Positions 47,563 through 53,027 of a stretch of 64,000 nucleotides of DNA are shown here, in pieces. This DNA is from a phage. Below the pieces are notes generated by a model. It made no database searches. It was not told where the DNA came from and worked only from the letters and a program-made list of their open reading frames with translations. The stretch lies in the sequence record PX880103.1; one strand, given 5' to 3'. The stretch's first letter is position 1, and each line of letters opens with the position of its first letter. The position numbers and the translations under genes are program-made.

Positions 47563-48419
47563 ATTGCCATTTTCCCTTTAATTGCTGGATGCGATTCATA
47601 ATTTTCAAGGATAAAATCTTTCGGTTTCATGTATTCAGTTAACCAGTAAAGCTGTGTTTCGGTGTCACAATTTCCAAACTCTATAGGCCAATCAATTTTA
47701 AGTTCACACAGTTCTTTAGGCTCACGACGTAAAATTTCTTTACATTGCTCAGTATGATTCATATAGATGTGAGTATTACCACCAGAAAATATCAAATCTC
47801 CTGGGATAAGATTACACATCTTAGCCACAATATGCGTCAAGGCAGCATACGAGGCAATGTTGAATGGCAAGCCTAAGAAAACATCTACACTTCTTTGGTA
47901 CCATTGTAAATCAAGATAACCATTACGCACATTAAACTGATAGAACATATGACAGGGCGGTAATGCCATTTGATTGATTTCAGCTGGATTCCATGCTGAA
48001 ACGATTTGACGTCGATCAGTTGGTAATTTTTTAATACGATCAATAGTTTCAACTAATTGATCCACACCACCGAAATCACGCCATTGTTTACCGTATATAG
48101 GACCAAGTTCACCACTATGATATCCTAGGTCTTTAGCCTGGTTTTCATAGTTATCGTCCCAAATAGTTTTACCTTGAATAAGACTACCATGAGTGCGAAG
48201 ACGTAAATCATTAACATTGGTAGAACCGGAAATAAACCATAGAAGCTCAGCAATGCATGCATTCCAAGCGAGCTTCTTAGTTGTTACTGCAGGAAAACCT
48301 TTAGTTAAATCCCAGCGTAATTTAGTACCGAACAAAGCAATTGTTCCTGTGCCTGTTCGGTCATCGGTTTCATAACCATTTTCAAAAATGTCTTTAATTA
48401 AATCTTGGTATTGTTTCAT
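47559..48419 (-). CDS. td: thymidylate synthase, uninterrupted (no intron)
   Basis: 286-aa continuous ORF as spliced T4 Td; active-site context PCH. Confidence 0.95.
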
Positions 48420-48464
48420 TTAGTACCTTATATAAATTATAATACATTTTATGAAGCTAAATAA

Positions 48465-48812
48465 TCAATACGGTTTAGCATCAAATTTTCTCTCAATTTC
48501 AGGTGTGAAATATAATTCTTTACCACGTTTGGAAAAGCGACCAATAATATGATAATTATTCTCATCAAACGTGATATTACCAATATCCATAGCTTTCAAC
48601 CAAATATCGATATTTCTATCAAGCTTTATGTCAAAATTCCAATACAGAGAACTATTACCGAAAATACTACAAGCGGATTCAGTGAAACAACTGCTATAAA
48701 TCTTGTCTTTAGGAACTACTAATTGATAGACACCTTTAATAAACTGAGGACCCTGCCATTTTGGCTGTTTCACGTCTTTTTCTAATAGAATAGGGTAATA
48801 ATTAAAATTCAT
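48465..48812 (-). CDS. hypothetical protein between frd and td
   Basis: 115-aa ORF with no recognisable motif, in a junction where T4 frd and td overlap. Confidence 0.55.
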   Translation of the reverse strand: MNFNYYPILLEKDVKQPKWQGPQFIKGVYQLVVPKDKIYSSCFTESACSIFGNSSLYWNFDIKLDRNIDIWLKAMDIGNITFDENNYHIIGRFSKRGKELYFTPEIERKFDAKPY

Positions 48813-48831
48813 ATTTCCGCCACGCGTTATT

Positions 48832-49658
<827 letters not shown>

Positions 49659-49668
49659 ATTATTTTCC

Positions 49669-49911
49669 TTAAACAGACTTTTTCACAATTTTCCAATCAG
49701 CTTTAAACTGGTCGACGTCAGAATGGTAAATCCAGAATCCTGCGCTTTCTCCGTCTTCATAAAGAGGACATCCATCGCATTCATCTTCCCATCCCATATC
49801 ACGTAAAAGGTGTTCAGCTTTTTCAACAAGTTCAGAATCTTTACCGATGATATTAAAATACCATTTACCTCTAACTTCTGAATCTTTAATGCTCTGACGC
49901 TGTAATCTCAT
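49669..49911 (-). CDS. hypothetical protein (frd.x)
   Basis: 80-aa ORF; early-type promoter upstream. Confidence 0.55.
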   Translation of the reverse strand: MRLQRQSIKDSEVRGKWYFNIIGKDSELVEKAEHLLRDMGWEDECDGCPLYEDGESAGFWIYHSDVDQFKADWKIVKKSV

Positions 49912-49934
49912 TTTATTCTCCTCAAGTTGATAAG

Positions 49935-49967
49935 GCTATAGTATCATTACCATAGCCTGTTGTAAAC
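49935..49967 (-). promoter_or_regulatory. early-type promoter candidate (GTTTAC -35)
   Basis: GTTTACAACAGGCTATGGTAATGATACTATAGCC on minus strand, upstream of the 80-aa ORF. Confidence 0.4.
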
Positions 49968-49969
49968 AT

Positions 49970-50197
49970 TTATTTTTGGATTAATCCCATATAAAATTTA
50001 GCATCTTCAGGATACATGCCATCACAATACTCATTGGTCATAAAACTAATAAGGTCTTCAAGAGGACCTTGAACTTCAATTTGAATACTAAAGAATTGGG
50101 TATCTTTAATGTAAGCCATACTCAAAGAAGGATAACGATTGCGGATAACTTCGTAAGTGTATTCAAAATCAACAATATCAATATTAACCTTAGCCAT
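49970..50197 (-). CDS. hypothetical small protein, paralog 1 ([13 protein letters not shown]...)
   Basis: Start moved to ATG 50197 with GAGGAAAA RBS (75 aa); the track's longer version would swallow its own promoter. Confidence 0.55.
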
Positions 50198-50224
50198 TTT
50201 ATTTTCCTCATGTAGTTGATAGGG

Positions 50225-50256
50225 CAATAGTATCACACTACTACCCTTCTGTAAAC
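50225..50256 (-). promoter_or_regulatory. early-type promoter candidate for small paralog 1
   Basis: GTTTAC -35 and TACTAT-like -10 upstream of ATG 50197. Confidence 0.4.
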
Positions 50257-50615
50257 TACTTTTTGAAAGTTTTTCGCAAAAGTTCAATGATTTCGTCTAC
50301 ATTGTTTTCATCTACAATGCAGTGAATTTTTGTTACGCCAGAAACTAGGTATTCGTCTTCTTCAGAAGTCGGTTCTTTATATTCACGAAAACAATGAAAT
50401 TCGTCTTCACAGACGTTAAAGTAAAAATGCTTTCCATTTGCGCATTCAATGTGTTTTATTACTCTAAATCCATCAACAAAGAAAGCTTCTTTAACTTCAA
50501 ACCATCCGCCATTTTCTTGAATAATTTTAACTATTGCTGAATTAGAACGTGGACGATAATTAATAAATGTATCAATAAGTCTTGGAACAAGTTCATACTT
50601 TTTACCGATATACAT
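50256..50615 (-). CDS. hypothetical protein
   Basis: 119-aa ORF between the two paralogs. Confidence 0.5.
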
Positions 50616-50662
50616 TTTCTTTTCCTCATTTTAATAGGGGCTTGATAGCCCCTTGATAATTA

Positions 50663-50887
50663 CTATTCAATAAATCCTGTGTAAAATTCTACATCTTCAG
50701 CATCCATACCGTCGCAGTATTCATTAACCATAAACTGTTTAAGACGATTTAAAGGACCTTCAATAACAACTGAAACATTACAATTAGGATCATTTAGTGC
50801 GCTTATGATACTAAGTTCAGGATAACGATTACGAATAATTTCTTCAATATATTCAAAATCAACAACATCAATATCAATTTTAGCCAT
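50663..50887 (-). CDS. hypothetical small protein, paralog 2 ([13 protein letters not shown]...)
   Basis: Start at ATG 50887 with GAGGAAAA RBS (74 aa); about 50% identical to the 49970-50197 product. Confidence 0.55.
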
Positions 50888-50926
50888 ATTATTTTCCTCT
50901 TTAATTATCAGCAGTATTGCCGATAG

Positions 50927-50960
50927 TTGTATAGTACCATAAAGCTTTATGCTTGTAAAC
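50927..50960 (-). promoter_or_regulatory. early-type promoter candidate for small paralog 2
   Basis: GTTTACAAGC ... TACTATAC on minus strand upstream of ATG 50887. Confidence 0.4.
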
Positions 50961-50989
50961 AACTTTGTGAAAAATTTTTAAAATAAAAA

Positions 50990-51008
50990 GGGGACCTCTA
51001 GGGTCCCC
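50990..51008 (-). terminator. intrinsic terminator downstream of gene 32
   Basis: GGGGACC-TCTA-GGGTCCCC then a long U-rich run on the minus-strand RNA. Confidence 0.7.
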
Positions 51009-51030
51009 AATTAATTAGTAATATAATCTG

Positions 51031-51939
51031 TTAAAGGTCATTCAAAAGGTCATCCAGGTCCGTGTCATCAGCACTAGATGAACTACCAGAGCTTGAGCTC
51101 ATAAAATCATCTTCAGTTTTTGTATTGAAGTCATCAACATTGAATGCATCCAAATCATCAGCAACTTTATCAGCTTTCTTAGCGGCAGTCGCTGCGGCAC
51201 CACCCATAGCAGCAGTTCCCATAACTTGACTGAACTTAGTGCTCAATTCTTCAAACGATTTGAATTTATCTTTAGAAGTCATTTCAGAAAGGTCAACCAT
51301 TTGTTCGAACAGTTCTTTCTGGAAAGATTCATCATCAATGTTTGGAATCGCAGATTGATTCAGGAATTTAGATTCGTCGTAGTTACTAAAACCAGAAACT
51401 TGTTTAACTTTCAGTACAAAGTTAGCACCTTCCCACGGACAAGTTACATCAACTGGAGTTTCACCCATTTCAACATCAACTGCAATCATTGCATTGATTT
51501 TATCCCAGATTTTCTTACCGAAACGGTATTTAAATACTTTACCTTCATTTTCTGGAGCAGCTGGGTCTTTTACTACAAGAATATTAGCCCAATAAGAAGT
51601 TTTACGTTTAACAAGGCTGTACTCTTTATTGTCAGTGTTGTACAGATCATTTTTACTGATGTATTGACATACTGGGCAAGAATCGTAATCACCGTGGGTA
51701 GATGAACAGTTTTCAATATACCATTTACCATTTTTCTTGAAACCGTGATTTACAAGAATTGCGAATGGTGCTTGTTCATCATTTTTAGACGGAAGAAAAC
51801 GAATTACTGCTTGACCATTACCCGCATTGTCGAGTTTCAGTTTCCACTCGCCTTTATCTTCAGAAGAAAAACCACCTTTGTTTCCAGCCAGTTTAGCCAT
51901 TTGTGCAGCGAGTTCAGCAGTAGATTTACGTTTAAACAT
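51031..51939 (-). CDS. 32: gp32 single-stranded DNA-binding protein
   Basis: 302 aa (T4 gp32 301); N-terminus [23 protein letters not shown]; acidic Ser-rich C-terminus; strong terminator downstream. Confidence 0.96.
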
Positions 51940-52038
51940 TTTTATTTCCTTTTTAATTTAATTAACAGTTGGTGCTATGACGATGTATGACCTCATAGCT
52001 GGTCAGTGAGGTAATTATAATCTATTTATAATAAGCAA

Positions 52039-52692
52039 TTAATACTTACAAGATTTCACAGTTTCAATGAAAACATTTTTAGCTTTCTGTGAATCAATAT
52101 TTAAAATTTTTCTATAAGCCTTTAACTTTATAGAATAATTATTCCAGACTAAATTATCAGTCTGTTCATCATGTTTATCAATTATATTTAAAAATGAATC
52201 AAGCAAGATAAACGTCTCAAACGAAATTATGTTCGATTGCAGAAGTTTAAAAATATAACTTGACTGAACTTTTGGATTATACTCAAAGATTTCTTTAAAA
52301 GCAGAAACTTCAACTTTTTTACTAAAATAATAAATGTTGCGAATATCTTCTTCAAACTTAAACTTAATTTGCTTTAAGCGTCCGATATATTCACGATAAA
52401 ACACAAGTGCATCAGCGTCAGAGATGTCACCAATCCAAGCATCTTGGTTAGCAACCAAATTGCTTATAAAGATTAAAGCAAGTTCCTTTAATTTATATTT
52501 TTCTGATAACTTCTGGAAAAAATACTTATCCCTTCGCTTTTGATAAGCGGCATCAGACACCCGCATGCACCAATTATACTTAATTACATCATACTTTCCA
52601 TTCATATGTTGTTTTATCATTAAGTATAATTTATAAACTGATTTACCATCAATGTATCTTTCACCACCAGCAGGCATGCGGAGTTTAATCAT
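52039..52692 (-). CDS. 59: gp59 helicase loader
   Basis: 217 aa as in T4 gp59; synteny. Confidence 0.9.
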   Translation of the reverse strand: MIKLRMPAGGERYIDGKSVYKLYLMIKQHMNGKYDVIKYNWCMRVSDAAYQKRRDKYFFQKLSEKYKLKELALIFISNLVANQDAWIGDISDADALVFYREYIGRLKQIKFKFEEDIRNIYYFSKKVEVSAFKEIFEYNPKVQSSYIFKLLQSNIISFETFILLDSFLNIIDKHDEQTDNLVWNNYSIKLKAYRKILNIDSQKAKNVFIETVKSCKY

Positions 52693-53027
52693 AGCAGAAA
52701 ATCTAATGTATTAGTTTTTTCACAACGAACAACAGAAGGACGTAAAAGATTTTCGTCAATAGCTTCTGACTGAATTTTTTCAATTATACCCGAAGGAATA
52801 AATTTAGCAAATTGAGTTTCAGGAATAGAGTTTTCTTCCAAGAATGCTGTCGTAGCTTCAAGATAACTCATTCCAAACTCTTCTACCATTTTTTCAATAA
52901 TAAATCCATTTTCTTGACGATCAAGAAGCTTTGCTATTTCATCCTTTTCTTTCTTAATTGAAAGTTCTTTTTCTGAAAGACCGGTCTCATCGACCGGACG
53001 AATATCATTTAGAGAAAACTGTGTCAT
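52689..53027 (-). CDS. 33: gp33 late transcription co-activator
   Basis: Internal start MTQFSL gives 112 aa as in T4 gp33. Confidence 0.85.
   Translation of the reverse strand: MTQFSLNDIRPVDETGLSEKELSIKKEKDEIAKLLDRQENGFIIEKMVEEFGMSYLEATTAFLEENSIPETQFAKFIPSGIIEKIQSEAIDENLLRPSVVRCEKTNTLDFLL

Follow-up and report, generated by a model that had tools for sequence, protein, structure and literature searches.

In the 64,000-nucleotide (nt) stretch of phage DNA analysed here (sequence record PX880103.1; hereafter the window), the region between gene 32 and frd carries two divergent copies of the small accessory gene frd.3. One of them, frd.3A (copy A), occupies the resident position behind gene 32, and the other, frd.3B (copy B), lies between frd.2 and frd.1. 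The two copies are homologous, and copy B is foreign to the genome that surrounds it. We consider it very probable that copy B was imported from a Gaprivervirus/Dhakavirus-like phage by recombination in promoter cassettes, and that it did not arise by local duplication. The locus thereby offers a junction-resolved example of a single small gene moved between T4-like genera inside shared promoter cassettes. The arrangement is a fresh instance of a documented process and involves no novel element type or mechanism.

The window belongs to a Tequatrovirus (T4-like) genome. A search with 3.2 kb around the locus matched 783 phage records, the best with 95-97% identity. Every gene of the stretch from gp59 to frd is on the minus strand. 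Segments of the window were compared at DNA level with VR7, ECML-359 and JS98 (the donor group; figures for QL01 are given where they differ), and synonymous divergence (dS) is listed against VR7. The genes, with their open reading frames (ORFs) in amino acids (aa), are as follows.

52039-52692, minus strand: gp59; 72-77% DNA identity to the donor group
51031-51939, minus strand: gene 32 (gp32); 69-72% to the donor group; dS 1.67
50663-50887, minus strand: frd.3A, 74 aa, in the resident Tequatrovirus position; Pfam PF05798, 109.6 bits
50256-50615, minus strand: frd.2, 119 aa; Pfam PF03197 (FRD2), 111.6 bits
49970-50197, minus strand: frd.3B, 75 aa; Pfam PF05798, 123.4 bits; 89-92% to the donor group (QL01 88%); dS 0.37
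Between frd.3B and frd.1: 58-nt promoter; 91-98% to the donor group
49669-49911, minus strand: frd.1, 80 aa, a resident backbone gene; DUF5417 (Pfam PF17438); 74-79% to the donor group; dS 1.82
49413-49658, minus strand: 81-aa ORF, the fifth small ORF; phrog_3183, no Pfam match
48832-49413, minus strand: frd; 67-78% to the donor group (QL01 82%); dS 2.69

The original prediction, made from the letters of the window, had described two small paralogous proteins, each with its own GTTTAC-type early promoter and a GAGGAAAA ribosome-binding site (RBS), separated by an unrelated 119-aa ORF. This description is borne out. The two proteins are identical at 38 of 74 residues (51%, E=1e-28, BLASTP), and both match PF05798 (Phage_FRD3) far above its gathering cut-off of 28.1 bits, with A covering profile positions 1-74 and B positions 1-75 of 75. 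Both copies also match phrog_1764. They lie 690 nt apart with frd.2 (PF03197), which is the 119-aa ORF, between them, and promoter and RBS were found upstream of each. The prediction had further counted five small ORFs against three in T4, and in T4 indeed three ORFs (frd.3, frd.2 and frd.1) are annotated in the gene 32-frd interval, which lacks the five-ORF arrangement. T2 has the same three genes and an unannotated 81-aa ORF, and frd.3 is single in both T4 and T2. The presence of the 81-aa ORF is a separate insertion/deletion, as T2, IME340 and VEc74 have it and T4 does not.

What did not hold was the interpretation, namely that a module of promoter and small ORF had been duplicated locally and that an early accessory gene had then diverged. 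When the two proteins and their upstream regions were aligned, as had been proposed as a check, the proteins aligned as described above, but the promoter regions scored only z=2.3 above shuffles, which reflects a shared consensus and not copied DNA. Moreover, the nearest relatives of copy B are the frd.3 proteins of Gaprivervirus and Dhakavirus (85-91% aa identity), followed by T4 frd.3 (68%) and only then copy A (51%).

The foreign affiliation of copy B is seen at every level of comparison. A megablast search with its coding sequence returned VEc74 as the sole Tequatrovirus record (97.8%), together with 73 more records at 86-92%; among those 73, each record whose genus was checked or is stated in its name (JS98, VR7, QL01, ECML-359, CLBP2) is a Dhakavirus or Gaprivervirus. 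The promoter 3' of copy B shares this affiliation, with 97-98% identity to Gaprivervirus phages and 91% to JS98, but only 74% to its equivalent in T2 and IME340. The surrounding genes are resident. Gene 32 and frd.2 are Tequatrovirus-type, with 94-98% identity to T2 and VEc74 against 69-72% or no match to the donor group, and frd.1 is 96-97% identical to T2, T4 and VEc74.

Synonymous divergence gives the same picture. Between the window and Dhakavirus/Gaprivervirus, dS is 0.37-0.60 for copy B and 0.8-2.7 for its neighbours, the lowest backbone value being 0.81 (frd against QL01). By Fisher's test, synonymous differences are fewer in frd.3B than in frd.1 (p=5e-4) and than in the pooled flanks (p=1e-6). 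This is not because frd.3 is merely a slow gene, since dS between the frd.3 of T4 and that of VR7 is 1.23. Copies A and B differ from each other by a dS of 0.98, which is about level with this between-genus value. As copy B is in addition nearest to other genera, the two copies are therefore the counterparts of two genera joined by horizontal transfer. When 42 frd.3 sequences were placed in a neighbour-joining tree, the B copies of Tequatrovirus formed a single clade with Gaprivervirus frd.3 as its sister group (bootstrap 97), apart from a clade that comprised every A-slot allele (bootstrap 100). Dhakavirus and Gaprivervirus phages carry their single frd.3 between frd.2 and frd.1, after an 86-aa ORF, i.e., in the very slot that copy B occupies in the window.

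The promoters of the locus show how the foreign segment is joined to the resident genome. A promoter scan found three promoter-like sites of the form TTTACA-17-TACTAT with an upstream TG, one each upstream of frd.3A, frd.3B and frd.1. Downstream of each promoter lies GAGGA(A/G)AATAAAATG, and CAAAAAGTA or CAAAAATAAAT stands upstream of the -35 element. The truly repeated pair consists of the promoters of frd.3B and frd.1, which form a direct repeat 289 nt apart with 71% identity over 55 nt (z=7.6). In T2, the spacer that separates frd.2 from frd.1 shares 89.7% identity with the 58 nt preceding frd.3B in the window (50198-50255), and by alignment the frd.3B promoter is the counterpart of the promoter that directly precedes frd.1 in T2 and IME340.

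The junctions were mapped in a three-way alignment of the window, phages lacking copy B (T2, IME340) and donor-type phages (VR7, ECML-359, JS98). The window agrees with the DNA that directly precedes frd.1 in T2 and IME340 over a stretch that begins at the end of frd.2, spans the -35 and -10 elements and extends to CCCTATCAAC. It then turns donor-type at CATGAGGAAAATAAAATG and stays so across frd.3B and the following promoter as far as CTTATCAACTTG; at ATGAGATTAC, where frd.1 starts, Tequatrovirus-type sequence resumes. The resulting features are listed below.

50931-50960 (site 50959-50931), minus strand: early promoter of frd.3A, GTTTAC-N17-TACTAT with an upstream TG, from the promoter scan
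50892-50899 and 50202-50209, minus strand: RBS GAGGAAAA of frd.3A and of frd.3B, respectively
50224-50262 (site 50255-50227), minus strand: resident-type part of the frd.3B promoter cassette, GTTTAC...TACTAT with an embedded hairpin
50213-50223, minus strand: left junction zone CCTATCAACTA between the -10 element and the RBS; resident-type upstream, donor-type downstream
49923-50212, minus strand: imported cassette of about 290 nt with a donor-type RBS, the frd.3B coding sequence and the donor-type promoter that now precedes frd.1
49933-49967 (site 49966-49938), minus strand: early promoter of frd.1, donor-type with a hairpin
49908-49922, minus strand: right junction zone AGGAGAATAAAATGA at the RBS and start codon of frd.1; donor-type upstream, Tequatrovirus-type downstream

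The left junction is identical in all 10 other loci that carry copy B (L012-L021). The right junction occurs in two variants. In the window it carries the donor-type leader CAACTTGAGG, and a second variant, CAACTACTGAGGAG, with a resident-type leader, is present in four of the carriers (L013, L014, L018 and L020).

Such an exchange would be explained by homologous recombination in short patches that are common to the early-promoter cassettes of T-even phages, which consist of a promoter, a stem-loop and an RBS and are known as promoter-early stem-loop (PeSL) cassettes. The left crossover would have fallen in CCTATCAACTA, within the resident frd.1 promoter cassette, and the right crossover in the RBS/start codon of frd.1, although some carriers would have it at TATCAAC once more. 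As an outcome, the resident frd.1 promoter would now drive frd.3B and the imported promoter would drive frd.1. By this swap an early promoter would be kept by every gene, and no transcription unit would be broken. We infer that the cassette entered either when a small excised circle integrated or by a double crossover in a co-infected cell. The CAACTACTGAGGAG variant of the right junction appears compatible with a single crossover at TATCAAC, and a double crossover in co-infection seems to fit the right junction of the window better than a single integration of an excised circle.

PeSL cassettes have been reported to mediate modular shuffling in T4-type phages (Arbiol et al., 2010, PMC2839356; Comeau et al., 2014, PMC4122927), and judged by sequence the import seems to match this model of promoter-cassette shuffling. 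As in the published cassettes, the composite here consists of an AT-rich lead, a sigma-70-like promoter that matches the PST/T4 early-promoter consensus TTTACW-N17-TAYWAT (PMC4122927), a stem-loop, an RBS and an ATG. The promoter, the RBS and start codon, and the AT-rich lead are found before frd.3A, frd.3B and frd.1. A stem-loop upstream of the promoter is present before frd.3A, in the form of the gene 32 terminator hairpin. Sequenced PeSL crossovers map to the interval from the -10 element to the ATG or RBS (PMC2839356; PMC4122927), and the crossover zone here, like that of the PeSL mini-circles, likewise lies between the -10 element and the ATG. Two cassettes bracket one small ORF that some close relatives have and others lack, as frd.3B occurs in the window, VEc74 and L012-L021 but not in T2, T4 or IME340, and the location, a variable region between core genes, is also shared with the described systems. 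Unlike in PeSL shuffling as reported, however, the imported ORF is a second divergent allele of a gene that the recipient already has and not an orphan gene.

A related precedent is the swapping of alleles and cassettes at the T4 internal-protein (IP) locus (Repoila et al., 1994, as cited in PMC4122927). From what that citing paper relates, small accessory genes with conserved regulatory borders are exchanged among T-even phages there as well, giving varied combinations in near-identical genomes. By the same account, the virion contains the packaged IP proteins, some of which are known to counteract restriction; no role is known for Frd.3.

Some observations weigh against the import as we describe it. 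The frd.3B gene is short (75 codons), so that about 41 synonymous sites underlie its dS values. At DNA level, the donors sampled reach about 92% identity at best, and the transfer was therefore not recent. In line with this, a search of IMG/VR for a closer donor returned just the known Dhakavirus/Gaprivervirus isolates at 85-91% aa identity, and a word-indexed protein search for copy B found nothing between 87% and 99%. The integration of a circle by a single crossover is not an exact fit for the window, because its right junction includes the donor leader CAACTTGAGG, and the window thereby departs from the mini-circle model. Finally, the hairpins flanking copy B differ from those of PeSL cassettes. 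They sit inside the promoter, spanning the spacer and the -10 element, and no U-run follows them, whereas the figure legend on the PST/T4 PeSL puts the stem-loop just upstream of the promoter (PMC4122927). The hairpin in the frd.3B promoter cassette folds with -20.5 kcal/mol (z=-4.9), and the one in the frd.1 cassette has z=-3.3, both significant.

We weighed the import against other ways in which a second frd.3 could have come to lie in this locus. A tandem duplication of the promoter and frd.3 module within this phage lineage, followed by divergence, would account for two homologous proteins encoded 690 nt apart and for the 82% DNA identity over 92 nt that spans the RBS and the first 27 codons of the two genes. 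After an in-situ duplication, the copies should be each other's closest relatives and share homologous flanking non-coding DNA, but copy B is nearer to other genera than to copy A, and the promoter in front of it matches the frd.1 promoter of T2. Together with the placement of A and B in different clades, an A/B dS on par with the between-genus value, promoters that are alike only in their consensus and the Gaprivervirus-type promoter 3' of copy B, this makes a local duplication very improbable. An ancient two-copy state is somewhat less unlikely, yet we still consider it improbable. Here, the T-even ancestor would have had both slots filled, most Tequatroviruses would have lost B, and Dhakavirus and Gaprivervirus would have lost A. 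Each slot is indeed occupied in different genera, and deletion between flanking promoter cassettes is documented (PMC2839356). Vertical descent nevertheless predicts equal divergence along the locus, and copy B is far less diverged from the donor group than its neighbours (p=1e-6), as is the promoter behind it, which is closer to the donor group (91-98%) than to its T2/IME340 equivalent (74%). Furthermore, two copies occur in at most 4 of the 734 records that carry Frd.3.

Transfer driven by a homing endonuclease would mean that co-conversion around a SegG-type cut near gene 32 pulled the cassette in. The segG gene lies between genes 59 and 32 in T4 and VR7, some contigs with copy B have a 210-aa ORF between these genes, and exchange in such regions has been attributed to homing endonucleases as a second driver (PMC4122927). 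Unlike in T4, however, segG is missing from the window, where gene 32 follows gp59 directly, and both junctions are inside promoter cassettes. Since the genes that separate the SegG site from the cassette, gene 32 and frd.2, are Tequatrovirus-type, there is no continuous conversion tract, and we regard this explanation as just as improbable as a local duplication. Least plausible of all, to the point of being negligible, is an assembly chimera in which reads of a Tequatrovirus and a Dhakavirus/Gaprivervirus-like phage were mixed in one sample. In its favour, the cassette is short and sewage samples often contain mixed T-even populations. Yet VEc74, the assemblies GCA_002196645.1 and GCA_026110335.1 and many independent metagenome contigs all have the window's arrangement, with an identical left junction. 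The B copies of these genomes also form a clade of their own, about 8-9% from any known donor, and therefore do not stem from a mixture of reads of known phages.

With the import of copy B as the preferred explanation, its later history can be followed in the carriers. Searches with tblastn placed Frd.3 in 734 phage records at 738 places in total, and two copies are therefore present in no more than four records, among which the isolate genome VEc74 is the sole confirmed one. In Jbel (PP942088), the same search gave a second Frd.3-like place that is outside its 32-frd locus. The exact B protein was found in 38 indexed blocks of public assemblies and in at least 24 independent contigs, and the carriers include the two NCBI assemblies named above and many independent metagenome contigs. 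All 10 carrier loci compared have the order gp32-Frd3-FRD2-Frd3-DUF5417-81aa-DHFR. Copy B is paired with at least four A alleles, i.e., the T4 type, the VEc74 type, the window type and a chimera whose type changes after IEGPL. Compared with that of VEc74, copy B of the window shows 5 synonymous and 0 non-synonymous changes; the test for amino-acid changes rests on this comparison, as the other carriers were fetched by an exact match to the B protein. Against the donor group, the ratio of non-synonymous to synonymous divergence (dN/dS) of copy B is 0.10-0.17. The shared left junction, the varied A alleles and the absence of amino-acid changes therefore show that copy B was inserted in a single event, has since spread among Tequatroviruses by ordinary recombination, is under purifying selection and is no artefact.

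The slot between frd.2 and frd.1 has taken up insertions repeatedly; in T2 and IME340 it is empty. SHBML-50-1 (L005, 1564-1824) and Jbel (L011, 3166-3426) carry a Dhakavirus-type 86-aa ORF in it, with 85% DNA identity to JS98 and QL01, well over the identity of the backbone, and this looks like a second, independent import into the slot. In T4T (HM137666; L003, 1734-1802, minus strand), the slot holds an unannotated hydrophobic ORF of 22 codons, MFAPYIMAAVMLVCLYLLIKAC, with its own RBS GGAGAAAAG, directly after the promoter equivalent to that of frd.3B in the window. Exchange is also seen between the donor genera. The block of 86-aa ORF, frd.3 and frd.1 has a dS of 0.24-0.59 between VR7 (L006) and JS98 (L008), compared with 1.19 for gp32 and 2.9 for frd; therefore, this block of small ORFs has apparently been exchanged between Gaprivervirus and Dhakavirus too.

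The resident slot is variable in its own right. The frd.3A of the window is a minority allele, for which 51 of 596 phage records have a match of at least 90% DNA identity, and it is listed as a rare 'cloud' gene in the Tequatrovirus pan-genome (PMC10236363). Its DNA identity to the T4 and T2 alleles is about 81%, though the flanks reach 94-97%. The last codon of frd.3A (50663-50665) is TAG, where IME340 and other carriers of the allele have CAG (Gln) followed by TAA, and this change ends the protein one residue early (...GFIE*). Two of the B-carrying loci (L016 and L017) have a chimeric frd.3A at 2270-2518 that is T4-type up to IEGPL and window-type after it, and such alleles imply that recombination occurs inside frd.3 as well. 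Overall, at least three sharply different A-slot alleles, in addition to the chimeras, occur in genomes that are otherwise 95-98% identical. With three A-slot clades, chimeric alleles and a cross-genus import, Frd.3 is an unusually allele-rich accessory gene and therefore a reasonable candidate for host-interaction studies.

The fold of Frd.3 is predicted to be ferredoxin-like, based on an AlphaFold2 model of copy B with the order beta-alpha-beta-beta-alpha-alpha (predicted local distance difference test 94.2, predicted template modelling score 0.82). Foldseek comparison of this model with BFVD gave five members named '8.8 kDa protein in frd-Gp32' with template modelling (TM) scores of 0.78-0.95, the best from Shigella phage Shf125875 (0.95) and those of Serratia, Erwinia and Klebsiella phages at 0.78-0.89. 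This name corresponds to Pfam PF05798, the T4 Frd.3 family ('uncharacterized 8.8 kDa protein in frd-Gp32 intergenic region'), with which the window proteins share length and neighbourhood. Nearly all genomes with this family have one copy, unlike the window, which has two from different clades. Pfam and PHROGs offered only families of 'unknown function', a sequence search of the PDB gave nothing at E<=10, and the literature contained nothing on the function of Frd.3 or on a two-copy arrangement. An exhaustive profile search of 1.84 billion representatives returned 8 matches and no cellular homologue. Two of these (P0018 and P0023) are spurious matches to repetitive proteins and two (P0019 and P0021) are fragments of 30-50 aa; with so few matches, several of them poor, the family is therefore small.

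The beta2-beta3 hairpin of Frd.3 differs sharply from one allele to another. Our best guess is that this early protein binds a host factor by a recognition surface that varies with the allele, and that two divergent alleles would widen what the phage can handle. A more specific version, which we regard as speculative and rather doubtful, would make Frd.3 a specificity-determining early protein directed at a variable host defence or takeover target, with the beta2-beta3 hairpin diversifying, alleles traded across T-even genera as promoter-bounded cassettes, and two alleles, maintained by purifying selection, broadening the range of hosts or their variants that the phage can overcome. The hints for it are the at least three A-slot alleles, the persistence of copy B across at least four A backgrounds, the acidity of the proteins and the substitution pattern of the hairpin. 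The Frd.3 proteins are strongly acidic (isoelectric point 4.05-4.27). Between copy A of the window and the T4 allele, the ratio of non-synonymous to synonymous differences (pN/pS) is 1.7 in the hairpin and 0.16-0.34 elsewhere, a difference that comprises about 19 changes and is not significant alone. The Frd.3 mRNA has been listed among the abundant NAD-capped RNAs of T4 (preprint).

The remaining features concern the transcript of the resident copy and the gene between the copies. Two further hairpins were found.

50990-51008, minus strand: intrinsic terminator hairpin GGGGACCCTAGAGGTCCCC of gene 32 followed by a T-run, just upstream of the frd.3A promoter (terminator scan, RNA fold)
50636-50653, minus strand: hairpin AGGGGCTATCAAGCCCCT between frd.3A and frd.2 (RNA fold, -12.9 kcal/mol, z=-2.2)

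The promoter scan found no -35/-10 match upstream of frd.2, and because no promoter lies between frd.3A and frd.2, the two genes are presumably co-transcribed. The hairpin AGGGGCTATCAAGCCCCT lacks a U-run; it may serve to process or stabilise the transcript of frd.3A and frd.2, or be a decayed promoter cassette. A comparison with Rfam gave no credible match across 48000-53000. The product of frd.2 belongs to the GoF/MotB.1/Frd.2 family with an LSm-like fold (PMC12152347), and among T4 genes of unknown function, frd.2 alone was scored 'Fit' in a CRISPRi-ART screen (PMC11879866). The RBS and the first 27 codons of the two frd.3 copies form a direct repeat of 92 nt (50118-50209 and 50808-50899), the arms of which flank frd.2; recombination between them would remove this gene, which is reported to be relevant for fitness in T4. 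Further downstream, between frd and td, the window has a 115-aa ORF (phrog_1928, 48465-48812) that T2 and VEc74 have and T4 does not.

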